This document shows, piece after piece, positions 10,211 through 60,908 of a stretch of 64,000 bases of DNA (within the stretch, counting starts at the first letter, position 1; each line of letters begins with the position of its first letter). Under the pieces are notes generated by a model. That model saw only the letters and a program-made list of their open reading frames with translations. It was not told the DNA's origin and did not search any database. Source of the DNA: Patescibacteria group bacterium (GTDB taxonomy: Bacteria; Patescibacteriota; Patescibacteriia; Magasanikbacterales; JBBTQS01); the NCBI GenBank assembly GCA_038065555.1, contig JBBTQS010000001.1, positions 363,751-427,750 on the forward strand, given 5' to 3'. The position numbers were made by a program, and so were the translations under genes.

Positions 10211-11956
10211 ATGGAGAAAGTCTGGACAGTATCAACGCCTCCTGCGGCGACTGATACAACTGATGGATATCTCGCAACGCTGCACCCCTTGGTGCAGCAG
10301 TTGCTTCGTAGCCGAGGAATGCACACCGCTGAGTCAGCCGAGAAATTTCTCACACCGCGATACGACCGTGATGTGCACAATCCATTTCTCTTTCGTGACA
10401 TGCGCCGCGCAGTGGATCGCGTGTGGCTGGCTATCGCATCCCAAGATCTCATCATTGTGCATGGTGACTATGATGCTGATGGTGTGTGCGGTGCAGCTAT
10501 TCTCTGTACAACTCTGCGCGCATTGGGCGCCAATGTAGAGTCATTTCTCCCCCACCGCGAACACGACGGCTACGGACTCAACAAAAAAACAGTCGACACA
10601 CTCCACGAGCGCGGCGCGCGACTCATCATCACGTGTGACTGCGGAGTGAGCAATGGTGCCGAGATCGCACACGCCAATACCTACGGCATTGATGTCATTA
10701 TCACTGACCATCACCAGGTACCGCCGATTATTCCGGAAGCGTTTGCAATCCTGCATCCCAAGGTTGATGGCGAGACATACCCAGACCAGACACTCTCTGG
10801 TGGTGGTGTGGCATTCAAATTAGCGCAGGGGCTCCTTGCAGAACATCGCGCGCGCGGGAATCAGACTATTGCAGGAATGCCACACGAAGGATTCGAAAAA
10901 TGGCTTCTCGATCTTGTTGCAATCTCGAGTGTGGCAGACATGGTTCCGCTCCTGCATGAGACTCGCGCACTCACACGATTTGGTCTCGTCGTGCTCAACA
11001 AAACACGCCGCATCGGACTCCAAAAACTTCTCGAGACCACCGGACGCAAAGAGCGCACCATGGATACCACGACCATTGGATTCAAGATCGCACCGCGTAT
11101 CAATGCTGCCGGACGCATGGACCATGCAAGTGAAGCGCTCGCGCTGCTCATGAGCGAGACTGAAGAAGAAGCACAGCCCATAGCAGAGCGTATTCATAGC
11201 TACAACACCTTGCGCCAAAAGTTGACTGAGGAGCTGACAAAGCGCGGCCGAGAACTCGTACGAACTACGCACGACACGGAAAACGATCCGATTCTTTTTG
11301 TTCGAGGTGACGGTTGGTCCCCTGGAGTCATCGGTCTCATTGCTAGCCGACTCAAGGACGATTACAACAAGCCAGTCATTGTGTTAGGGCAAGCAGGCGA
11401 TTCCTACGTTGGATCAGGTCGGTCTGTGGAGACATTTCATATTACCAACGCACTCCATGAAGTTGCGCCGTACTTGTTGAAATTCGGCGGGCACCCACAA
11501 GCATGCGGATTTACACTCAAATCGCGCGACGTCTATGACGAATTTTGCGCAGCGCTGACCGAAGTTGCGAAGCGTCGACTCGTGGAGTCGCCGACAGCGC
11601 CACCGATTCTGGAGATCGATGCGGAGCTCAACCTCGACACGATCGATACACGACTCGTGCAGGTGCTGGAGCAGTTCGCGCCATTTGGCATTGGGAACAA
11701 CGAACCAACATTCGTTGCGCGTGGCGTGATTGTGGTAGAGTCACTGGGCATGGGTTCTACACAGAACCACACTCGCCTCACCCTCCAGCAATCTGACCGT
11801 GGCCGCCCTATGAAATTTGTGGCTTTTTTCTCCAAACTGTGGCAACGTGTGGAGCGAGGAATGCGTGTAGACGTCGTATTCCAGCTCGGCACCAACGAAT
11901 GGAACGGCCGGCAAGAAATTGAATGCAAAATAATTGATCTCAAGCCTCTCGTATGA
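10211..11956 (+). CDS. recJ: Single-stranded-DNA-specific exonuclease RecJ
   Basis: DHH motifs (IVHGDYDADGVCG, ITDHH) and a DHHA1 C-terminal region. AGGAG RBS 3 nt upstream of the ATG. Confidence 0.9.
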   Translation: MEKVWTVSTPPAATDTTDGYLATLHPLVQQLLRSRGMHTAESAEKFLTPRYDRDVHNPFLFRDMRRAVDRVWLAIASQDLIIVHGDYDADGVCGAAILCTTLRALGANVESFLPHREHDGYGLNKKTVDTLHERGARLIITCDCGVSNGAEIAHANTYGIDVIITDHHQVPPIIPEAFAILHPKVDGETYPDQTLSGGGVAFKLAQGLLAEHRARGNQTIAGMPHEGFEKWLLDLVAISSVADMVPLLHETRALTRFGLVVLNKTRRIGLQKLLETTGRKERTMDTTTIGFKIAPRINAAGRMDHASEALALLMSETEEEAQPIAERIHSYNTLRQKLTEELTKRGRELVRTTHDTENDPILFVRGDGWSPGVIGLIASRLKDDYNKPVIVLGQAGDSYVGSGRSVETFHITNALHEVAPYLLKFGGHPQACGFTLKSRDVYDEFCAALTEVAKRRLVESPTAPPILEIDAELNLDTIDTRLVQVLEQFAPFGIGNNEPTFVARGVIVVESLGMGSTQNHTRLTLQQSDRGRPMKFVAFFSKLWQRVERGMRVDVVFQLGTNEWNGRQEIECKIIDLKPLV

Positions 11957-12363
11957 AACTCATCAGCTACACCGACGGCGGCGCACGCAACAACCCAGGA
12001 CCAGCAGCCTCTGGCATAGTCATTCTCACAGAATCTGGCGACGTTGTTGCAGGATTTGGACGATGGTTGGGATCTCAGACCAACAACTACGCCGAATACA
12101 TGGCACTCGTCTTCGCACTCGAACGCGCACTTGAGCTTGGCGCAGACGAACTCGAATGTCGCATGGATTCCAAGTTAGTAGCAGAACAAATGTCAGGCAA
12201 CTGGCGCGTGAAGGATCCAGGATTGCAAGTGTTGTTTCTCAAGGCGATCAAACTCGTCAAAGAATTCAAAAAAGTGAAGTTCGTGCATGTGCGTCGCGAG
12301 TATAACAAGGAGGCTGACGCGTGGGTGAACAGAGCGTTGGACGTGCAGCACGACGTGTCGTAA
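11953..12363 (+). CDS. rnhA: Ribonuclease HI
   Basis: YTDGGARNNPGPAASGIV...NNYAEYMAL...DSKLV are RNase H catalytic-core motifs. The start overlaps the recJ stop (ATGA). Confidence 0.8.
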   Translation: MKLISYTDGGARNNPGPAASGIVILTESGDVVAGFGRWLGSQTNNYAEYMALVFALERALELGADELECRMDSKLVAEQMSGNWRVKDPGLQVLFLKAIKLVKEFKKVKFVHVRREYNKEADAWVNRALDVQHDVS

Positions 12364-12375
12364 CTACAACAAAAA

Positions 12376-12444
12376 GCAAAAGGAGTTCATTTTCAAGTCC
12401 TCCCCGTTAACTGAGGTCCGGGCTTGAAAATGAACTCCTTTTGC
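12376..12444. terminator. Bidirectional rho-independent terminator (22-bp perfect stem)
   Basis: GCAAAAGGAGTTCATTTTCAAG...CTTGAAAATGAACTCCTTTTGC with a 25-nt loop, T-runs on both sides. It lies between convergent rnhA (+) and the 12472-13050 gene (-). Confidence 0.7.
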
Positions 12445-12471
12445 TTTCTCTCGCAGCCACGCTACACCGCG

Positions 12472-13050
12472 CTACTCGTCGAAATCTTCTACGCCCATGC
12501 GTCGGCCTCCGCCGCCGCCTCGATTATTTTGGAGAACAATCATGGCTACGATTGGTGCGATGAGCCATACGAATCGGCCGATATCAGACAGAAATACTTG
12601 TTGTGTCATTGGCGCAAGGAGCGCAATGCTCGTGAGCGGTAGGAATGACAAGACGATGCTGATGAGCAGTCCAACGTGCAGTACGCTATAGATCGATACT
12701 TGGAGCCAATTGCCATTGCGTGGGTTGGCACGCGAAAGCGCGTCTGAGAGTGCACTGCGGGAAAGTAAGAAAAAGAAGATCACGAATGATCCAACGAACA
12801 CGGTGAATTTGGCGCCAAATCCTTGGACGTCTACTTGTGCTGTGATCGTGCGCAGAAATGGTGTATTCCCTACAATAGCCAGCGCCATGTAGAGCCCCAC
12901 CATGATCACGATGATACGGTCGCGCCCGAGCGACACACCGTACAAGAACGACGCAACAATGAAAAAAATCCAAATGAAAAGATCCCACGTTGGCGAGGTC
13001 CAGTTGATCGAATGAGCGAAATTGGTCACGCTTCCCAAGAAGCTGGACAT
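12472..13050 (-). CDS. Hypothetical polytopic membrane protein
   Basis: 192-aa ORF with four or more hydrophobic helices and a Gly/Arg-rich C-terminus (RGGGGGRRMGVEDFDE). Confidence 0.55.
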   Translation of the reverse strand: MSSFLGSVTNFAHSINWTSPTWDLFIWIFFIVASFLYGVSLGRDRIIVIMVGLYMALAIVGNTPFLRTITAQVDVQGFGAKFTVFVGSFVIFFFLLSRSALSDALSRANPRNGNWLQVSIYSVLHVGLLISIVLSFLPLTSIALLAPMTQQVFLSDIGRFVWLIAPIVAMIVLQNNRGGGGGRRMGVEDFDE

Positions 13051-35434: not shown

Positions 35435-35508
35435 TGGCAGGGGCGGTAGGAATCGAACCTACGCAGAAGGTTTTGGAGACCTTTGTACTACCATTATACG
35501 ACGCCCCC
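35435..35508 (-). tRNA. tRNA-Trp (anticodon CCA)
   Basis: The reverse complement folds as a cloverleaf GGGGGCG...GGTCTCCAAAACC...GGTTCGATTCC...CGCCCCTGCCA. The anticodon loop is CTCCAAA. 3' CCA is encoded. Confidence 0.85.
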
Positions 35509-35548
35509 AGTACTTGAGATCGACTCAAGTATACCAGAATACCACAAC

Positions 35549-35564
35549 GCCGGCAGATGCCGGC
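35549..35564 (-). terminator. GC hairpin downstream of rpmG
   Basis: GCCGGC-AGAT-GCCGGC just past the rpmG stop. Confidence 0.4.
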
Positions 35565-35572
35565 GAGCGGAA

Positions 35573-35728
35573 CTACTTTGTTTCCTTGTGTGGGGTGTGC
35601 TTCACGCAAAACTTGCAGTGCTTATTTGTAAGCATGCGAGCCTTGATGATCTTCTTGTTCTTGTGGGTGTCATGCGTCACGCGGCTGCATGCGCTGCACT
35701 CAAGGTGAATCAAATTGTCTTGTGACAT
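35573..35728 (-). CDS. rpmG: 50S ribosomal protein L33
   Basis: 51-aa ORF below the ORF-track size cutoff. MSQDNLIHLECSACSRVTHDTHKNKKIIKARMLTNKHCKFCVKHTPHKETK carries the CxxC...CxxC zinc ribbon and the Lys-rich L33 pattern. It sits inside the tRNA cluster. Confidence 0.8.
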   Translation of the reverse strand: MSQDNLIHLECSACSRVTHDTHKNKKIIKARMLTNKHCKFCVKHTPHKETK

Positions 35729-35763
35729 ATGTCAGTAATTAACTGGTCTTTCAATACTCTCGG

Positions 35764-35836
35764 AGCCATCTCCGGGGTTCGAACCCGGGACCTACGGTTT
35801 ACAAAACCGTTGCTCTACCAGCTGAGCTAAGATGGC
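35764..35836 (-). tRNA. tRNA-Thr (anticodon UGU)
   Basis: The reverse complement reads GCCATCTTAGCTCAGCTGGTAGAGCAACGGTTTTGTAAACCGTAGGTCCCGGGTTCGAACCCCGGAGATGGCT. Anticodon loop TTTGTAA. CCA is not encoded. Confidence 0.85.
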
Positions 35837-35840
35837 GCTG

Positions 35841-35922
35841 TGGGCAGGGGGGGATTCGAACCCACGAAGGCGTAGCCAGCAGATTTACAGTCTGCCCCGG
35901 TTGACCACTTCGGTACCTGCCC
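35841..35922 (-). tRNA. tRNA-Tyr (anticodon GUA), long variable arm
   Basis: The reverse complement reads GGGCAGGTACCGAAGTGGTCAACCGGGGCAGACTGTAAATCTGC...GGGTTCGAATCCCCCCCTGCCCA. Anticodon loop CTGTAAA. Confidence 0.8.
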
Positions 35923-38835: not shown

Positions 38836-41136
38836 TCACGCCTTCTGCGCTGGGGCAGACTGAGCGTGTGCCGTGAGTCGCGCAGCGACCTCCTCTTGGA
38901 GGAGGCGTCGCTGCGTCTCATCAGGTGCCACCGTAGCGATCTGATCGAGTGCTGCCTTGAAGATTCTCGCAACTTCACGCTGACGATGCAGACACTGTTC
39001 GAGCTCCTGAATGCGTTGCGCTCGTATCTGCTGTTCCTCGATTCGATACCGAAGCTCCGTTTCCTCCTTCTCGTAATCTGCCCGAACTTGCACGAGCTCT
39101 GCTTGGATCGACTCCTCCGAAATAACATAGTACGAGGGCGTCACCGGGGGCTCCTCGTCTTGCACGTCATCTTCCGGAACTCGTTCGCGCCTGACGCATC
39201 TGAATAGGCTCGGCGCTTCGCTGTCGATACCCTCTCGCTCTCCTGGAATGTAGTATCGATCGAGATTCAGCAACCCCTCCTCGTCCACCAGCTTGCGCAG
39301 GAAGTATTCCACGAAGTCCTCCGAACCATCCCAGCCGAGAACAGCACGAACTTCATCGATGTGCCCAGTGCTCAATGCGAAGTAGTCTCTGTCCTTTGCA
39401 TTCTCTGTCGCACGTACGAGCACCTCCTCGAGTTGATCGAGAGCCACACCCTCCTTACGTAGACGACCGATGATCACAGCAGCATGACTCGCGCCAGCGT
39501 TCTGATCTGTTTCCATTGCGAGGAACGCGTACCATCGGGACGTATCATTGAACTTCAGTCGACGCTGATTACTCTCTTCAGAGTACCTCGTCGACGTCAC
39601 ATCTGCGAGACCGTCTTTGATGAGAAGCGACGCGAATTCTGCTGCTGTGACATGGAGCATGAGCCCCGCATTGAACCACGCCGCATCTTCGATCTCCTGG
39701 ACCTTGAAACCGCTGCGCCCATAGAACTCCTTGACGACATCGGTGTAGGCCGCCCGACACGCATCGATCTGCGCCTGCGTGAGATTGTCTGCTTTGGATG
39801 TTTGAGAACCAGTTGCCATGCTGACCTCCGTTGTGCCGCCCGTCGATGCGCAGCGGCAATGCAGCGTCCTGATTTCGCCATCGCTTGGCGATCGCTCAGG
39901 ACGAACTTCGAGCAGCGACCCAGCAGGTGTCACTGCGAACTGTTCGAGGAACCGTTCCACGAACAGTTGATGCTGACGGTGTTGAGACCAGTTGAGCGCA
40001 GTGCGCAGCACACCTGCTACACTCGCCGTGACCTCGAACCACCCAGACTCATCAGTGGGAATGGTGCGCAATGCAGTTGTGAGGGCTTCACGGAGTGTGA
40101 GATCCTCCGAGACTTCCTCGACAGCACTGATACACCTCTCTTCGCCCCAGATTTTGCCCAGTCGCATTGCGATACGGTCTGCAGTGCGGTCATGAGCAAC
40201 CAACCGGAGCTCGCGCTTGTCGCTCTTCTTGTCAACAGTCGCGTGCGTGAGATCCTCGAGATGCGCATCGCGCACCAACGCATCAATCACATCCGCTGCA
40301 GTATTGGGTTTGCCGTGCCCAGTATTAGCTGCGAACCACGGCACACGCTTCACCCGTTCGAGCGTGAACGAACTTGCGCCGTAGAAAGCACTCACGAGCG
40401 CCTCGTGTGCGGCTTGCGCGGTTCCTGGTGACAACCCCTGGGAGACAGTCGGGGCACGCACCACAGATACTTCGCTCTTCCGAAATCGTCCACCGCATTC
40501 CTTGGGAAGGCGATCGAGATCGAACGCGAACTCACCTGGGATCGTGCTTCCCTTCGCTCGTGGTGGTTTGTCGATACGCAGTGCGCTATGCTTGCGCGCG
40601 AGTGCAATCGCAGCGAGCGCAAGACCCTTGTCCGAGACAACTTCAATCGCGCGAGCAAGAGTGAACTCTTTCTCTGACACTGCACCTACCAGCATCTTCA
40701 GGTTGACCACAGTGATATCCGCGTCAGCAGATTCCGTGACTGTTCTTTTATGCGCCTGAAGAGGCATCGGTACAGATTCGGTGCTGCGCCCGTGCAGCTT
40801 GTTCGCGAACCTGTATGACACGTGCTCGTCACCTGCAGAGAGTCCTCCACGAACCAGATGCAGTAATCCAGCTTCGTGGTAGTGAGCCAGTCGCTGACCC
40901 CAACTCTTTGCCGTGCCGTCTGAAAGGATTGGCGCAATTGATGCACCTGAAAAGACCAATCCACTGGACAGTTCTCGGGAGAGCCGCAGGAAATGCGGTT
41001 CATTGCTGAGATCTTCATTCACTGTAGCCTCCAGAAACGGTGATTGTTGTGGTTGCGAGTACCCACTCGCTTGCGCGATCCTACCAATCTTTGCATGACG
41101 GGTCAATGTGTCAGCGTTGATCGTCGAACCCACCAT
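38836..41136 (-). CDS. Large hypothetical protein (766 aa) with three internal repeats and a C-terminal coiled-coil; possibly phage antirepressor/BRO-N-like
   Basis: Repeated blocks: EKEFTLARAIEVVSDKGLALAAIALA, then AFYGASSFTLERVKRVPWFAANTG, then EFYGRSGFKVQEIEDAAWFNAGLM. The C-terminal approximately 100 aa are heptad-rich (ELVQVRADYEKEETELRYRIEEQQIRAQRIQELEQCLHRQ). GC looks higher than the core genes. Confidence 0.6.
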   Translation of the reverse strand: MVGSTINADTLTRHAKIGRIAQASGYSQPQQSPFLEATVNEDLSNEPHFLRLSRELSSGLVFSGASIAPILSDGTAKSWGQRLAHYHEAGLLHLVRGGLSAGDEHVSYRFANKLHGRSTESVPMPLQAHKRTVTESADADITVVNLKMLVGAVSEKEFTLARAIEVVSDKGLALAAIALARKHSALRIDKPPRAKGSTIPGEFAFDLDRLPKECGGRFRKSEVSVVRAPTVSQGLSPGTAQAAHEALVSAFYGASSFTLERVKRVPWFAANTGHGKPNTAADVIDALVRDAHLEDLTHATVDKKSDKRELRLVAHDRTADRIAMRLGKIWGEERCISAVEEVSEDLTLREALTTALRTIPTDESGWFEVTASVAGVLRTALNWSQHRQHQLFVERFLEQFAVTPAGSLLEVRPERSPSDGEIRTLHCRCASTGGTTEVSMATGSQTSKADNLTQAQIDACRAAYTDVVKEFYGRSGFKVQEIEDAAWFNAGLMLHVTAAEFASLLIKDGLADVTSTRYSEESNQRRLKFNDTSRWYAFLAMETDQNAGASHAAVIIGRLRKEGVALDQLEEVLVRATENAKDRDYFALSTGHIDEVRAVLGWDGSEDFVEYFLRKLVDEEGLLNLDRYYIPGEREGIDSEAPSLFRCVRRERVPEDDVQDEEPPVTPSYYVISEESIQAELVQVRADYEKEETELRYRIEEQQIRAQRIQELEQCLHRQREVARIFKAALDQIATVAPDETQRRLLQEEVAARLTAHAQSAPAQKA

Positions 41137-41839: not shown

Positions 41840-41915
41840 TGGAGCCGACGACCAGGATTGAACTGGTGACCTCATCCTTACCATGGATGCGCTCTACCAA
41901 CTGAGCTACGTCGGC
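41840..41915 (-). tRNA. tRNA-Thr (anticodon GGU), CCA encoded
   Basis: The reverse complement reads GCCGACGTAGCTCAGTTGGTAGAGCGCATCCATGGTAAGGATGAGGTCACCAGTTCAATCCTGGTCGTCGGCTCCA. Anticodon loop ATGGTAA. Confidence 0.85.
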
Positions 41916-56158: not shown

Positions 56159-58453
56159 ATGCGTGCATTTCTGTCCCATATTGGAGTCCACGAGTTCTTC
56201 GTGGAAGGCAAAGACCCGGACGCTTCCCAAGTCATCGTACACATCACCGAACCAGCCAACGAATCCGAGTACCGCCGTGGATACATCTTCATGATTGCGC
56301 AAGCAGATCACGCGCCCATGAAGACAATCGAAACCATCAACGCCTGGGTACAAGAAGTCGAAACTGGATTCTACGAAGAGCCACTGCATCGTGACTCAGC
56401 CGCAGCCCACTTCGAGCATCTCCTCGAACGCGTGAATCGCAAGAGCGCGGCATTGTTGCGAGATCTCAAGAGCAGAGATGCTTCTTTGAGTCTCGTGATT
56501 GGTATGGTCAATGAACAAACCCTGGCGTTTGCTCTTCGCGGCGTACCTGTTGGATTTGTGGCGTACAAGGACAAGAAGACCAACGCCGTCAATACCATCG
56601 ACATTACTTCCGAGAATACCGAACCACACTCTGACACACAGTTGTTCGGTTCAATTATTAACGGCGCACTCCACGCCGGCGACTCCGTGTTCTTCGGCAC
56701 CCCCGAAATCGCCGAGCAACTCGAGCTCTCCGAGATCACTTCAGTACTCGAGCAAAAAACACCGATCAAAGGTGCAGCGCATTTCCAGAACGCACTCGAC
56801 CGTATTGCCGGCGCTGCGTCCTACGGTGGTGTATTCTTGGAACGCGTTCCAGAACACGCATCGATTGAGACTTCGGAGTACGAATCTCCAAGCAAAAAAT
56901 CTTCGAGCAAACGCGACTCCATCTCCTCTCTCATCGACTCGCAACAAGCAACTGAAGAAACGCTCGCGCCATCGCTCTTTGCCAACATGCGCAAACGGCT
57001 CGAAGCGCGACTGCAGAACTCCCGCGCAACAGATGAGGACGCAGAGGAAGATGATGAGCCATCAGCTTCCATCACCGCTGGTACACGCCATCGCGAACGC
57101 ATTGCCGCGATGCGCGAAGGCCGCAGCACGTCAGGTGGCGCATATCTCCACTCGATCGGCAGCGCAATTGCTCGTGGTGTGCGCGTCGCCTTTCCAACCA
57201 TCATTCGCTGGAGCCGCGCACTCATTGTATTTGTGATCATGGCAGTGGAGACGTTGTTCTTCGTGACCACAAATATGGGTGGCCGTCGCCGTGAATTCAT
57301 TGAATACTGGAAAAGAAATTCGAGCGAGCAATGGGAGCGCACGAGCAGCTGGTTCGGCTCACTCTCCTGGCCACACAAGATCGCGACTGTTGTTGTGGGA
57401 CTCAGTGCCATCGCCTTTGTGATCGGCATCGGCGTTGTACAATGGAACCGCTCGTCCGCAGCTGATGCGCAAGTATACGCTGACACGATTGTTCGCATCG
57501 AGTCACTCATCTCCTCAGCCGAATCATCCCTCATCTACAATGAGGAAACCCGCGCTCGCGTCACCATGACTGAGGCTCGTACAGCAATCGAATCACTCCC
57601 CAACAAATCTATCGACGAAGAGAACGCGCGCGTTCGCCTCTCGAGCAAACTCGCAGGTCTCGAGGAACGCATCCGCCGTGCCACACACGTGTCACCAACA
57701 GAACTCGTAGCTACAGCTGCGTCTGGCATCAACCCAACATCACTGCTTGTCACCAACAACTTACTCATCGTAGCTGATCCTGCGAAGAAATTGCTCGTTC
57801 TCGAACGCGGCTCCCAGAAGATTTCTACCGAGAATGATGTCCCTGCGCTCAATGACTTCATTGGACGCGCAACTCCAGAGGGTCTCACCTTCTTCATCAG
57901 CCGCGGCGAATCAATCCAGTGGAAGAATCAGGCAGACGATGCAAAAGTAGCAACTACAATCCCAGGTTCTGGCATGTTCGACGCAGCCATCTACAACGAT
58001 CGACTCTACTCGCTCGTTCCAAGTGACAAAATGATTTATCGCCATGGCCGCTACCAAGAGGGATTCGGCACTGGTACTGCATGGGCAAAAGGAAATCCTG
58101 ATTTGAGCAATGCCGTGAGTATGGCCATTGATGGCAATGTGTGGACACTCGACAAAACCGGCAAGATCCGCATGTTCGAGCGCGGTGAAGAAAAGCCAAT
58201 CACCCTGAGCCCTGTAGACCCTGCAGTAACCAACGCGACGCAACTCGTCACATTCCTCAACTCCAAGTGGCTCTACACACTCGAGCCAACGACAAAGCGT
58301 CTCATCGTCCACGAGAAAACAGGCGCGTACACGGTGCAATACATTCTGGACAACACCTCTGACATTCGCGCGATGGCGATTGATGAGGCGAAGAAGATGG
58401 CGTTTGTGCTTGATGGTGCTTCGGTGAAGCAGTTTCCGCTCACTCATTTCTAG
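56159..58453 (+). CDS. Large hypothetical membrane protein (~765 aa): cytoplasmic N-domain, 2 TM helices, extracytoplasmic C-domain
   Basis: ATG at 56159 preferred over the GTG at 56141. Approximate domains from my residue count of the translation: a cytoplasmic region of about 330 aa with an acidic linker, two TM helices (ALIVFVIMAVETLFFV, IATVVVGLSAIAFVIGIGVV), and a roughly 350-aa C-terminal domain with a beta-rich, propeller-like composition. Confidence 0.6.
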   Translation: MRAFLSHIGVHEFFVEGKDPDASQVIVHITEPANESEYRRGYIFMIAQADHAPMKTIETINAWVQEVETGFYEEPLHRDSAAAHFEHLLERVNRKSAALLRDLKSRDASLSLVIGMVNEQTLAFALRGVPVGFVAYKDKKTNAVNTIDITSENTEPHSDTQLFGSIINGALHAGDSVFFGTPEIAEQLELSEITSVLEQKTPIKGAAHFQNALDRIAGAASYGGVFLERVPEHASIETSEYESPSKKSSSKRDSISSLIDSQQATEETLAPSLFANMRKRLEARLQNSRATDEDAEEDDEPSASITAGTRHRERIAAMREGRSTSGGAYLHSIGSAIARGVRVAFPTIIRWSRALIVFVIMAVETLFFVTTNMGGRRREFIEYWKRNSSEQWERTSSWFGSLSWPHKIATVVVGLSAIAFVIGIGVVQWNRSSAADAQVYADTIVRIESLISSAESSLIYNEETRARVTMTEARTAIESLPNKSIDEENARVRLSSKLAGLEERIRRATHVSPTELVATAASGINPTSLLVTNNLLIVADPAKKLLVLERGSQKISTENDVPALNDFIGRATPEGLTFFISRGESIQWKNQADDAKVATTIPGSGMFDAAIYNDRLYSLVPSDKMIYRHGRYQEGFGTGTAWAKGNPDLSNAVSMAIDGNVWTLDKTGKIRMFERGEEKPITLSPVDPAVTNATQLVTFLNSKWLYTLEPTTKRLIVHEKTGAYTVQYILDNTSDIRAMAIDEAKKMAFVLDGASVKQFPLTHF

Positions 58454-58458
58454 GCGCG

Positions 58459-58630
58459 CAAAAACAACGATAGCTTTGCATCCCTTTCGGGCACGACGTC
58501 AATTCCACTAACCGTGGAATTGCGTCTCGAACTCGGACTGTCGGACAACGTGTCATGCCTAACGGCGATTACGACTGGCCGACCGTCCTCCGTTAGTCCC
58601 TCAAGGAATGCAAAGCTATCGTTGTTTTTG
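58459..58630 (+). repeat. Structured ~172-nt element, copy A (candidate ncRNA or MITE-like element)
   Basis: 22-bp perfect outer stem (CAAAAACAACGATAGCTTTGCA / TGCAAAGCTATCGTTGTTTTTG). Inside it: CCCTTTCGGG, the hairpin CAATTCCAC-TAACC-GTGGAATTG, and GGACTGTCGG...CCGACCGTCC. Homologous to copy B, in the opposite orientation. Confidence 0.6.
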
Positions 58631-58671
58631 TACACACATCACTGTATGAGCGAACACTCCCTCAAAACACA

Positions 58672-58692
58672 CCACCCTCAGAGTTCGTCTGA
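58672..58692 (-). terminator. Terminator hairpin of the 58720-59361 gene
   Basis: CCCTCAGA-GTTCG-TCTGAGGG 28 nt past the stop, followed by TGGTGTGTTTTGAGGG on the minus strand. Confidence 0.45.
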
Positions 58693-58719
58693 GGGTGCGG
58701 TTTGCGATGATGCTACTGA

Positions 58720-59361
58720 CTACTCGCCAGGCAGCAGACCATCGGGGTTGTTGTTGATGTAGAGGTACGAGTAAGGCAGCTGCCGATCCGGGAACCGCGG
58801 AGCCGCCCTGAGCATATCATATGCCCGGGCGAGGAAGATGGAGGCTCCCCCACTTTCCCCTTGCACCTCAGCACACGAACCCGGAGCTCCACTTGCGATG
58901 ATCATATGCTCACGCTTGCGATTGCGCGCGAGTGTGAGCAGCGTCTGGAGTGGACTCGCACTCACAAGATTCAGATTCCGCGCCACTGCATCGTGCACCT
59001 CGAAATCTGCGAACACGAGCACAGGACGAAAGAACAGTGTTACTCCCGCAGGAAGAGAGAGATCGCAGAATCCCAGCTCTTTTTTCACGAACTCATCCAC
59101 TCTCCCAGCCGCATCGTGAATCAATACTTCTTGACCCGTCGAACCAGACACGGTCACAGGCTGCAGATGACACACCATAGCCTCGTCGTGTTCGGTAATC
59201 ACGTTGCATGTGATCATCTGCCGACCCAGCCGCCGTGCGAGCAGTGGATCATCCACTACACCCTGAACCACTGCCTCTTGTTCTTCGAGCGCAAGCCCTG
59301 GAAACGCCGCCAACACCCCACGCGGAAGTGCAGACTGAAATCCTCGATGCTCAATATCCAT
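58720..59361 (-). CDS. Hypothetical protein flanked by the two structured-element copies
   Basis: Probable start MDIEHRGFQSALPRG (ATG at about 59361). About 213 aa. No motif recognised. GC looks slightly higher than the core. Confidence 0.5.
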   Translation of the reverse strand: MDIEHRGFQSALPRGVLAAFPGLALEEQEAVVQGVVDDPLLARRLGRQMITCNVITEHDEAMVCHLQPVTVSGSTGQEVLIHDAAGRVDEFVKKELGFCDLSLPAGVTLFFRPVLVFADFEVHDAVARNLNLVSASPLQTLLTLARNRKREHMIIASGAPGSCAEVQGESGGASIFLARAYDMLRAAPRFPDRQLPYSYLYINNNPDGLLPGE

Positions 59362-59440
59362 GTGAACACCTCCTCGCCCCGAGCTTCGCACACACACAAA
59401 GGCTTGTCAACGCAGGTCATTTACTTGCGCGCACGTACAC

Positions 59441-59614
59441 CGTCGCATTGCGAGGAGTGTGCGTTCCTTGAGGGACTCACGGAGGTCAGCCGGTCGGCCG
59501 TATTCGCCGTGAGGCGGTACGCGTTATCCGGCTGACCGAGTGCGAGACGGCCATTCCCGGTTAGGGAATGGCACGTTGTGCCCGAAAGGGATGCACACTC
59601 CTCGCAATGCGACG
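59441..59614 (-). repeat. Structured ~174-nt element, copy B (inverted relative to copy A)
   Basis: 22-bp perfect outer stem (CGTCGCATTGCGAGGAGTGTGC / GCACACTCCTCGCAATGCGACG). The reverse complement aligns with copy A across CCCTTTCGGGCAC, GCCATTCCC-TAACC-GGGAATGGC, CGTCTCG, GGTCAGCCGG...CCGGCTGACC and TCCGT.AGTCCCTCAAGGAA. Confidence 0.6.
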
Positions 59615-59633
59615 ATAACGCACGCGCAAAGCA

Positions 59634-59660
59634 AAAGACCCGCCACGAGGACGAGTCTTT
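59634..59660 (-). terminator. Weak terminator hairpin after rplL
   Basis: AAAGAC-(15 nt)-GTCTTT followed by TGCTTTGCGCG on the minus strand. Confidence 0.3.
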
Positions 59661-59679
59661 GTGCGAAGTGTGCGACTGA

Positions 59680-60081
59680 TTACTTGAGAGTAACCTTTCC
59701 GCCTGCTTCTTCGATCTGCTTCTTCATTGCCTCTGCGTCTTCCTTCTTGAGGCCTTCCTTTACTACCTTTGGCGCTGCGTCTACGAGATCCTTTGCGTCC
59801 TTGAGGCCGAGACCTGTGAGTTCGCGAACGATCTTGATAACAGCGATCTTGTTAGCACCAGCTTCTGTGAGCTCAACGTTGAATTCCGTCTTCTCTTCTG
59901 CTGGTGTTGCAGCTGCTGCGCCTGCCATTGGCATCATTGCCATTGGAGCTGCAGCCGATACGCCGAACGTTTCTTCGAGAACCTTTACAAGCTCCGAAAG
60001 ATCAAGTACGGACATCGATTCGATGGACTTCACGAGAGAAGCGAACTTCTCTGGTACCACCACGTTCTTTTCTTCTGACAT
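59680..60081 (-). CDS. rplL: 50S ribosomal protein L7/L12
   Basis: [41 protein letters not shown] with an Ala-rich hinge and a C-terminal [14 protein letters not shown]...[10 protein letters not shown]. Confidence 0.95.
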
Positions 60082-60617: not shown

Positions 60618-60799
60618 AAAAAACAAAAACCGTGACTAATGCCACAGTCCATGAGCTACCATCTCTGGCAACTCCCGACTCTTCGACCGCTGAACTACTC
60701 CTAAAAAGAGAGTCCAAGCCTCGGCAGGGTTTATGGCGTGAGCCAACCTGCTGTCTGTGGCGATGGGGCAAGGATACACTGGCTCCTGAAACCTGTCAA
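60618..60799 (-). promoter_or_regulatory. rplJ 5' leader (candidate L10 autoregulatory leader) with a sigma70-like promoter
   Basis: About 150-nt untranslated leader. Minus-strand TTGACA (60799-60794), 17 nt, TATCCT (60776-60771). The leader contains several GC hairpins. Confidence 0.35.
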
Positions 60800-60908
60800 G
60801 AATTACAGCAAACCCCATCCGTAGACCTTAGGTAGTAGTGTATCCTTGCTAAATCAAAACGAGCTCGGACCTTGTTGGTTCGAGCTCGCCCACCGTTCCG
60901 GTGTGTTT

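Follow-up and report, generated by a model that had tools for sequence, protein, structure and literature searches.

In the genome of a groundwater Patescibacteria, two inverted copies of an element of ~170 nt bracket a small orphan-gene cassette beside rplL. Whether this pair corresponds to structured RNAs, to DNA ends or to by-products of mutation, and what it could do at this site, is the question raised by the locus. To our knowledge, very few non-coding RNAs have been described in Patescibacteria (CPR). We have analyzed the element within a 64-kb window, that is, the whole stretch of 64,000 nt, and in related strains. The features to which the text refers are as follows.

58425..58442, no strand: outer flank of A (3' end of the 770-aa gene), with a weak mirror at 58647-58664, at equal distance from P1
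58459..58630, minus strand (predicted functional strand): element copy A, 172 nt, with closing stem P1, a tandem GA/GA loop, P2, a three-way junction, P3 and P4
58477..58612, minus strand: core of A, homologous with the core of B (inverted repeat and alignments)
58673..58697, minus strand: intrinsic terminator of ORF213, between ORF213 and copy A, CACCCTCAGACGAACTCTGAGGGTG then GTGTGTTTTG (terminator scan)
58720..59361, minus strand: ORF213, the enclosed orphan cargo gene (dN/dS), with an AGGAGG ribosome-binding site at 59370-59375
59386..59436, no strand: inner flank of B, an inverted copy, now decayed, of the rplL terminator region
59441..59614, plus strand (predicted functional strand): element copy B, 174 nt, architecture as in copy A
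59460..59595, plus strand: core of B, homologous with the core of A (inverted repeat and alignments)
59618..59675, no strand: outer flank of B, host DNA with the rplL intrinsic terminator (hairpin 59637-59657), the template of the inverted duplication

The two copies and the cassette between them

The positions and sequences that a first-pass annotation had given for A and B agree with the DNA, and its description of them as inverted copies is borne out. A repeat search pairs 58477-58612 with 59460-59595 over 136 nt, with an ungapped complementarity of 76%, and the identity between the two copies is 81-83% when they are aligned with MAFFT. It is the interior that is 81-83% identical, the copies being unrelated in their outermost 18-19 nt. 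The copies sit at the two borders of the cassette, which is located between the convergent 770-aa gene and rplL. Copy A begins 5 nt past the stop codon of the 770-aa gene, and on each strand it finishes with GUUGUUUUUG; copy B has no U-tract.

ORF213 is a real protein-coding gene, as judged from its dN/dS of 0.21-0.33 between strains, and an orphan. Its terminator sequence is identical in four strains, and both cargo proteins are under purifying selection. Searches among 5.8 billion and 1.84 billion proteins recovered just two relatives, P0001 at 93% identity and P0009 at 35% identity. Neither ORF213 nor ORF155 matches a Pfam, PHROG or PADLOC family, both being orphans, in line with the absence of a recognizable motif reported at first pass for the enclosed gene. 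Inspection of ORF213 by eye revealed no conserved catalytic Tyr and no properly spaced motif of the HUH/Rep or PD-(D/E)xK type, and a profile search against the PDB yielded a sole match to NADAR (8bau_A, E = 0.14) and no family, which is a lead rather than a result. The AlphaFold models of ORF213 and ORF155 are unusable, with pLDDT of 32 and 34, respectively. As for base composition, thought earlier to be higher in GC than the core, ORF213 (56.7% GC, GC3 of 0.58) is not anomalous next to neighboring genes with GC3 of 0.50-0.69, in a window of 52% GC.

Comparison of the sequences recovered from different strains demonstrates that the cassette is variable, consisting of one or two genes or of a 35%-identical allele, and that ORF213 or this allele is flanked by the element in all strains recovered. 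The cargo genes are equipped with canonical terminators of their own, which lie upstream of copy A. The gap between the convergent genes is empty in the distant relatives L010 and L029, and it contains other genes in the sister species L009, where no inverted elements surround what is inserted at this site. The rplJL neighborhood appears to be incidental, with the module filling a variable gap between two convergent genes.

Fold, selected strand and rate of change

Both copies are predicted to fold into a long closing stem and a three-way junction, in which P3 carries a GNNA apical loop and P4 a GGUUA loop. The fold has a z-score of -10.8 to -12.4 for the two copies, i.e., around -11, and none of 200 shuffles folds equally well. 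The internal hairpins keep their pairing while changing sequence, as had been noticed at first pass: both of the quoted pairs are present, one stem being CAATTCCAC/GTGGAATTG in one copy and GCCATTCCC/GGGAATGGC in the other around a common TAACC loop, and the second GGACTGTCGG/CCGACCGTCC versus GGTCAGCCGG/CCGGCTGACC. Applied to A and B, RNAalifold finds 67 pairs, with 24 double-sided changes and none broken. When only the core is considered, 11 of the 49 pairs have changed on both sides, 3 on one side and 0 are broken, the 11 double changes comparing with ~3 expected if changes were independent. Among nine strain variants, standard pairs make up 97.4% of 390 pair cells, against 33-40% for slid partners, and their covariation score is reached by 0/500 shuffles. 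Compensatory changes are seen in the internal helices P3 and P4, and the P3 loop reads GUUA, GUGA, GCUA and GCAA across four variants, GNNA every time. All of the evidence, on pairing as on the strand, is drawn from a single locus of a single species-level lineage, with few independent sequences or lineages. Between A and B, 18% of unpaired and 26% of paired positions have changed (p = 0.5), and this lack of significantly greater conservation of unpaired positions counts against the explanation favored below, as do six non-wobble mismatches in the composite copy B of one strain, assembled from two contigs and possibly a chimera.

The strand under selection can be read from the changes that affect one side of a pair. 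In the core and inner P1, all of them give G·U on A(-)/B(+), at eight distinct positions versus zero on the opposite strand, an asymmetry seen in A-position and B-position copies alike. For each full copy, folding is favored by 8-21 kcal/mol on the A(-)/B(+) strand over the other. Moreover, a covariance model (CM R1) scores copy A at 194.8 bits on the minus strand versus 56 bits on the plus strand, and copy B at 198.4 bits on the plus strand versus 58.7 bits on the minus strand. Three uncompensated changes in the outer stem of B in strain L016 favor the opposite strand, and these too count against the favored explanation. Since the one-sided changes in the core all give G·U on A(-)/B(+), comparison of the variants establishes that the selected strand of both copies reads outward from the enclosed gene and points out of the cassette.

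The element also changes slowly. Copy A differs by 3-5% between strains in which synonymous sites differ by ~38% (dS of 0.45), which is 7-10-fold slower than neighboring synonymous sites, and the module is fixed at one locus across strains with dS up to 0.45. These rates demonstrate, at the level of sequence, that the element is under purifying selection. The generic criterion for a functional structured RNA consists of compensatory changes, strand-specific wobbles and a slower-than-neutral rate, and the element displays all three in the strain comparisons. With compensation in P3 and P4, wobbles on one strand and slow change, the first-pass view of a conserved secondary structure rather than a decaying repeat holds.

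This ~170-nt three-way-junction element is previously undescribed, both in a full-text search of the literature and in Rfam. With Rfam 15 at the gathering threshold, four tRNAs are the only matches in the window and the element is unmatched by any family, including those of tRNA, 6S, SRP, RNase P, tmRNA, Y RNA, ribozymes, HEARO, IS605-orfB and pRNA. The first-pass annotation had not recognized the fold as tRNA, RNase P, SRP, tmRNA, 6S or a hammerhead/twister ribozyme; at E ≤ 10, positions 58300-59800 give only snoR128 noise (21 bits). Nor did searches for further copies detect one outside the locus. CM R1, run on the window with filters off and on ~250 kb of related loci, recovers the two copies and their strain variants and nothing else, the scores of plain hairpins being ≤31 bits. 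Motif scans, in which exact motifs can miss diverged relatives, spanned 596 Gb of genomes, JGI metagenomes and IMG/VR. They produced only chance matches, one in GTDB genomes, inside a coding region (L001), and two in JGI metagenomes that lack covariance-model support (L014 and L015), with nothing in IMG/VR, and blastn against phages and plasmids gave no match. Another long inverted repeat (39474-39650, z = -2.2) is internal to a coding region, and we rejected it as a copy of the element. A small peptide was discarded as well, because the 61-aa ORF across A has an in-frame stop in B. No resemblance in sequence to the rRNA GTPase center or to the L10 leader, of the kind that would suggest a mimic, was seen.

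Outer stems and their flanking DNA

The first-pass annotation had singled out a different, perfect outer stem of 22 bp in each copy. The pairing is indeed perfect, with 22-23 Watson-Crick pairs, or 28 contiguous pairs on A(-)/B(+) when G·U is counted, but it is not evidence of covariation since it derives from the host flank. The outer P1 of copy B varies among strains, in which three types were seen, and pairing holds in three unrelated outer stems. The symmetry of B extends ~58 nt past the stem, and a local alignment of its inner and outer flanks scores 18, a value reached by 0/2000 shuffles (6.9 ± 1.3). The rplL terminator is also present in the sister genome L009, which is devoid of the element, and the -35-like hexamer of ORF213, TTGACA (59410-59405 on the minus strand), now falls within the inner flank of B. 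For A, the flank mirror is marginal, with a score of 10 equaled by 99/2000 shuffles, and the repeat search gives an inverted repeat with 67-nt arms and 75% complementarity. These alignments demonstrate that the outer stems are inverted duplications of the local host flank, not co-varying homologous positions. The duplicated flanks past P1 have decayed to ~70% while P1 is still perfect, which provides an internal control for selection on pairing.

Possible roles and known systems

Our leading explanation, which we hold tentatively and at a little under even chances, is that the element is a lineage-specific structured RNA module placed at the 3' ends of cassette transcripts, where it would act as a terminator, insulator or stabilizer. 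We infer both the transcription and this role. Copies A (minus strand) and B (plus strand) would each encode an RNA reading outward from the cassette, made of a conserved core of ~136 nt, with two tandem G·A motifs and with GNNA-capped and GGUUA-capped arms, closed by a long duplex. The outer part of this duplex was copied from the adjacent host DNA through foldback or template-switch duplication, and only its pairing has since been kept. Transcripts that exit the cassette in either direction would have such a module as their 3' end, which would stop read-through into the antisense of essential neighbors and shield cassette RNAs from 3' exonucleases, and the duplex of 28-35 bp would probably serve as a substrate of RNase III. 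Copy A, which has U-tracts on its two strands, would also terminate the 770-aa gene. In favor of a terminator-type role, the same genome has a perfect 28-bp hairpin between convergent genes at 12373-12447. Against it count the lack of a promoter, the terminators that the cargo genes already have and the missing U-tract in B: a promoter scan found no promoter-like site for either copy, and there is no evident source of plus-strand transcription into B. A simple terminator scan requires a loop ≤8 nt and cannot score A or B. A three-way junction with a conserved core is also more elaborate than termination or RNA protection needs.

The element could also be a trans-acting or protein-bound small RNA, present in two copies, that would be the partner of ORF213 in a toxin-antitoxin, defense or other ribonucleoprotein module, which we regard as possible, if doubtful. 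ORF213 or its 35%-identical allele is bracketed by the element in all strains recovered, both cargo proteins are under purifying selection, and the core sequence is constrained beyond the needs of pairing, its tandem G·A motifs and invariant GGUUA and GGA loops being typical sites of protein or tertiary contacts. However, the co-occurrence stems from a single inherited locus and is not independent evidence, no promoter was found, and ORF213 has no predictable fold (pLDDT 32) and no family beyond the weak NADAR match (E = 0.14). The inverted, outward orientation at both borders would also be left unexplained.

The element could instead act as DNA, as folded single-stranded ends or recombination sites of a moving or exchanged cassette of which ORF213 might be the enzyme, but we consider this improbable. 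Variable cargo does lie between inverted copies, and the site is empty in L010 and L029 but filled with other genes in L009. On both DNA strands of the unit, the fold under selection is 3'-terminal; host flank is duplicated in inverse orientation around each core, as hairpin foldback priming would predict; and cargo alleles appear to have been swapped, with crossovers inside the elements. Yet no transposase, recombinase, integrase, Rep or HUH family was detected in the cargo proteins or the window genes scanned, the termini of A and B are unrelated, and no direct target duplication was noticed on inspection of the outer borders, rather than by a systematic search. Moreover, the module has stayed at one locus through dS up to 0.45, no further copy was detected in the window by CM R1 or in 596 Gb of genomes, JGI metagenomes and IMG/VR by motif scans, and the R'/R'' motifs of attC are absent. 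There is a slimmer chance still that the pair and ORF213 constitute a new cassette system, in which the orphan protein would recognize a folded RNA or DNA strand to exchange, replicate or guard the cassette; the inverted host-flank duplication would then be the footprint of a hairpin-primed insertion mechanism.

We give only a small chance to the structure being mainly a mutational by-product, i.e., quasi-palindrome correction by template switching, with no function needed. The outer stems and at least 58 nt past the stem of B are inverted adjacent host DNA, a foldback or template-switch footprint, and template switching can alter both arms of a helix at once (quasi-palindrome mutagenesis), which could mimic compensation. 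However, it gives Watson-Crick pairs and fails to explain why 8/8 one-sided changes give G·U on one strand of the element, in copies located on opposite genomic strands. It leaves unexplained the 7-10-fold slower change of A than synonymous sites and a P3 loop that varies only within GNNA, and P1 has escaped the decay seen in the flanks beyond it. As for the last two suggestions of the first-pass annotation, a MITE that captured a gene is unlikely in view of the unrelated termini, the lack of a direct target duplication on inspection of the flanks, the two copies in the window and a locus stable to dS 0.45, and an ωRNA/HEARO-like or retron-like RNA is rejected since the scanned proteins of the 64-kb window yielded no TnpB, IscB or RT domain and Rfam gives no match even at E ≤ 10.

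The element is a clean candidate for a CPR non-coding RNA, with a large and well-supported fold, a clear strand and measurable purifying selection, in an unusual layout where two outward-facing copies bracket a swappable pair of orphan genes. The locus is also a natural example of long RNA stems built from neighboring DNA by foldback and then kept by selection, which matters for how outer-stem "covariation" is read in genome scans. If the copies are recognition sites for the orphan protein or ends for an exchange mechanism, a new cassette system would be at hand; if they are elaborate terminators or insulators, the interest would be local only.

Among known systems, intrinsic terminators, including bidirectional ones, and 3'-stabilizing palindromes such as REP/BIME or ERIC sequences resemble the element, itself an intergenic, strongly folding palindrome of 120-170 nt that is located between convergent genes and would presumably work as RNA at the 3' ends of transcripts. 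Copy A has A- and U-tracts beside its stem, and the hairpin at 12373-12447 is a counterpart in the same genome. The element differs from these in its sequence-conserved branched core, in its inverted pair around a cassette and in the lack of a U-tract in B, and whereas REP/BIME and ERIC are dispersed in many copies, it has two at one locus. Integron attC sites are likewise structured imperfect palindromes that bound promoter-poor or variable cassettes, the fold of one strand only matters and their central structure can branch. In contrast to them, the copies are inverted rather than direct, lack RYYYAAC/GTTRRRY core sites and are conserved in the interior instead of at the ends, the cassette genes have their own promoters and terminators, and no integrase was found among the genes scanned.

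Like retron msr-msd, the element would be a structured RNA of ~150-200 nt, with a variable closing stem reminiscent of a1/a2, and like the TnpB reRNA it borders an accessory module and faces outward. It differs from these, as from IscB and IS110 bridge RNAs, in that no RT, TnpB, IscB or IS110 recombinase, and no RuvC or HNH domain, was found in the neighbors or the window proteins scanned. It is distinguished from HEARO and IS605-orfB by the lack of an Rfam match even at E ≤ 10, and from guide RNAs by a variable stem that is self-complementary host flank. For copies acting as DNA, the hairpin ends of IS200/IS605 offer an analogy. The T-shaped ITRs of parvoviruses and hairpin telomeres resemble the element in architecture only, with a long stem and two arms at both ends of a small unit, inverted, a favored fold at strand 3' ends and a foldback-type duplication of adjacent sequence. 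The element differs from them in that it has no recognizable Rep/HUH or telomere resolvase and is chromosomal and vertically inherited at a single locus, with unrelated end stems. In the TIRs of MITEs and IS, finally, the ends should match and the interior be less conserved, while the element shows the reverse.

Fold and selected strand of the element

The two inverted copies described in the first-pass annotation, A (58459-58630) and B (59441-59614), are present in the window as described and are exactly two in number there. They form a 136-nt inverted repeat, 76% complementary without gaps, and are 81-83% identical once aligned. Folding of each copy, compared with shuffled controls, gave z = -10.8 to -12.4, and the consensus is composed of four parts.

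Consensus fold of the element
P1: long closing stem, running via a tandem GA/GA loop into P2
Three-way junction: joins P2, P3 and P4
P3: long irregular arm with an apical tetraloop
P4: 13-bp arm with a GGUUA loop

A search of RNA family models had been proposed; no Rfam family matches the element, even at E ≤ 10. The claim of a conserved secondary structure holds, with pairing kept through double changes both between A and B and among strain variants. Between A and B, 24 of 67 consensus pairs are altered on both sides and none is broken. Within the 49 pairs of the core, 11 carry double changes and 3 a one-sided change; independence of the 25 changed paired positions would predict about 3 double changes. 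Among nine distinct copies, full or partial, from the strains, standard pairs occupy 97.4% of 390 pair cells (33-40% when the 3' partners are slid by 1-3 columns), and 24 pairs show double changes versus 2-3 in the slid controls. The observed covariation score was reached by none of 500 shuffles, a control that takes no account of relatedness, the deep element lineages being effectively two or three. Fresh compensations are seen at strain level, such as pair 63-75, which goes from U-A to C-G in strain L022.

The element also has a defined functional strand, minus for A and plus for B, and is under purifying selection. All one-sided changes in the core and inner P1 give G·U on A(-)/B(+) and A·C on the opposite strand; 8 distinct pair positions favor A(-)/B(+) and 0 the other strand (chance ~0.004 given equal likelihood), and several of these changes are of independent origin, in copies lying on opposite genomic strands. 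The A(-)/B(+) strand folds better by 8-21 kcal/mol in all full copies, and the P3 apical loop, which occurs as GUUA, GUGA, GCUA and GCAA, is GNNA every time. It is therefore a single-stranded form with outward polarity that is under selection, A reading leftwards and B rightwards, both away from ORF213. There is one exception, the B outer stem of strain L016, in which three uncompensated transitions would be wobble pairs on the opposite strand. It is very likely that the element is both structured and functional as a single strand.

The locus and its cassette genes

A Patescibacteria population living in groundwater at Hainich (well H41) is the source of the window. Exact-protein look-ups with the enclosed gene, rplL and the 770-aa neighbor recovered strains with the same locus (L016/L018, L008+L024, L025, L022 and L023+L026+L027), at a dS from the window of 0.01 for L016, 0.10-0.13 for L008/L024 and 0.24-0.45 for L023/L026. 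In the sister species L009, whose neighbor protein is 83% identical, three other genes occupy the site and the element is absent, while in the distant relatives L010-L013 and L029 rplL directly adjoins, with an ordinary or branched terminator hairpin in between. Since strains share the locus and relatives have other content or direct adjacency, the module fills a variable gap between two convergent genes and is inherited in place within one species-level lineage. The two inverted copies delimit a cassette of orphan genes whose content varies.

Other features of the region and of related contigs
L009:12353-16820: different insertion at the same site, with 700-aa and 402-aa proteins without family match and a 154-aa DnaJ-domain protein
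L009, after the rplL terminator: a stretch of ~340 nt that lacks gene calls and folds weakly (z = -2.4); it may contain a small ORF
L010:12306-12398 (also L011-L013), between a 763-aa gene and rplL: 15-17-bp A/T stem round a ~65-nt branched insert (z ~ -6), analogous to the element in layout, with no sequence similarity seen and no match to its covariance model, CM R1
L010:13382-13509: Rfam L10_leader, 56 bits
Window 60627-60908, upstream of rplJ: no Rfam L10_leader match at the gathering threshold; the leader may be missing here or have diverged too far
L028:6221-6267: end of a contig with a 44%-identical orthologue, 47 nt past the gene's stop codon; this tail (CATGTTCCCTTCGGGCCTAATGCGG), too short to judge, faintly recalls the element's CATCCCTTTCGGGCAC, and the break may mark a repeat

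The enclosed ORF213 (minus strand, 58720-59361) is a genuine gene: it has AGGAGG as ribosome-binding site, a terminator of its own at 58673-58697 and a dN/dS of 0.21-0.33. Its only relatives among 5.8 billion and 1.84 billion sequences are 93% and 35% identical proteins, both located in the same cassette, and it is an orphan. The remote-homology search that had been suggested for it yielded no Pfam, PHROG or PADLOC match. Residues 14-122 weakly match a PDB profile, the NADAR-domain protein 8bau_A (E = 0.14, with a three-member family profile, hence a lead only), and Pfam does not report the NADAR family at E ≤ 10. The AlphaFold models of ORF213 and ORF155 are both unusable. ORF155, a second orphan gene found in some strains, has its own terminator, a TTGACA-type promoter-like site and a dN/dS of 0.14; the window strain lacks a second orphan gene. 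The element might serve as an RNA partner of ORF213, which we consider unlikely.

Variable cassette genes
Second orphan gene (155 or 138 aa), between ORF213 and A: L016:5485-5952 and L018 (ORF155); L022:1036-1452; L027:974-1390
35%-identical ORF213 allele (218 aa), in two samples: L022:257-913; L027:195-851

In the 35%-identical allele, the promoter region, a C-terminal INNNPDG motif and the terminator are nearly unchanged. The 5' UTR in L022 (~190-215, cctggcgaatag) looks like what is left of a further ORF213-like gene at its 3' end, pointing to replacement of a paralogue or of the cassette. The element could act as DNA, its copies forming the folded ends of a cassette that is exchangeable or mobile, an explanation to which we give less credence than to an RNA partner of ORF213. 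A domain survey of the window covered 20 large ORFs from 1-41 kb and precomputed Pfam for ~20 kb round the locus. It found ordinary core genes (uvrB, murJ, lepA, recJ, dnaK/J, a MacB transporter), several ORFs without family and, among the surveyed ORFs, no reverse transcriptase, transposase, integrase, RNA-guided nuclease or mobile-element domain. The window also holds a Trp, Thr, Tyr tRNA cluster (35435-35922) and a separate tRNA-Thr (41840-41915).

Outer stems and sequence constraint

The outer stems are built from host flank. At B, a mirror copy of the 58 nt beyond the stem towards rplL, including the rplL terminator, lies on the inner side; the match scores 18, which none of 2000 shuffles reaches (6.9 ± 1.3). 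This terminator is found also in L009, which is without the element, and the inner flank copy is therefore the derived one; it now supplies the TTGACA -35-like hexamer of ORF213. At A, it is the 3' terminus of the 770-aa gene that is mirrored, at equal distance from the stem; this match is marginal, being reached by 99 of 2000 shuffles. Because palindromic symmetry continues past P1, the outer stems read as inverted duplications of local host DNA round each core, the mark left by foldback or template-switch synthesis on a strong hairpin. Of the different, perfect outer stems noted initially, the perfect pairing stands; being copied from host flank, they are not co-varying homologous positions. 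Past P1, complementarity of the flanks has decayed to ~70%, whereas P1 itself remains perfect in the window; this gradient speaks for maintained pairing over the first 20-35 bp. Pairing is likewise present in a third, unrelated outer stem, where six pairs are G·U on the outward strand.

Sequence differences in A and in neighboring parts of the cassette
A, window vs L026 (67 nt): 3%
A, L016 vs L022 (113 nt): 5.3%
Adjacent ORF155, synonymous sites, L016 vs L022: 38%
Cassette intergenic parts other than A: 8-14.5%

The stem of A has the same sequence across all strains; B is less constrained, and its outer stem takes three forms. The B-position core is A-like in strains L022/L023/L027, indicating concerted evolution of the two copies there; the assemblies of these strains break at the repeat. 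A composite B (L008 + L024) has six non-wobble mismatches and one A·C, and may be a two-strain chimera or a decaying copy. That the element is purely a by-product of template switching is very improbable: its wobble pairs are strand-specific and it changes slowly, both of which contradict such an origin.

Possible role and comparison with known systems

At each border of the cassette the strand under selection points outward; most simply, the element would therefore form a 3'-end RNA module on transcripts that run out of the cassette. Such a module would keep transcription from continuing antisense into rplL and the 770-aa gene and would protect cassette RNAs, and the long duplex would probably be a processing site. 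For the convergent 770-aa gene, A would double as a terminator, as it starts 5 nt past the stop and ends in a U-tract. The use of a long hairpin between convergent genes, demonstrated elsewhere in the window, counts for a 3'-end role.

12373-12447: perfect 28-bp hairpin (AAAAGCAAAAGGAGTTCATTTTCAAGTCC ... GGGCTTGAAAATGAACTCCTTTTGCTTT) between convergent genes 11953-12363 (plus strand) and 12472-13050 (minus strand)

This hairpin is an unusually long bidirectional terminator, and the genome tolerates very long perfect stems. Counting against a 3'-end role, no promoter or plus-strand transcription source into B was found, the cargo genes already end in terminators of their own, B is without a U-tract, and a role of this kind would not call for so elaborate a core. 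A terminator, insulator or stabilizer mechanism is proposed only tentatively.

The element belongs to none of the known systems considered, namely an Rfam family, attC and the MITE/IS ends, retron ncRNA and ωRNA that the first-pass annotation had raised; each was tested on defining features, of which one or more failed. The element is real, well supported and undescribed, private to one lineage and one locus; a demonstrated transcript, protein partner or mobility would sharply raise its significance. Its architecture is like that of attC sites and parvovirus-type terminal hairpins, a likeness that is architectural only. In position, it most resembles branched terminators and REP/ERIC-like palindromes.
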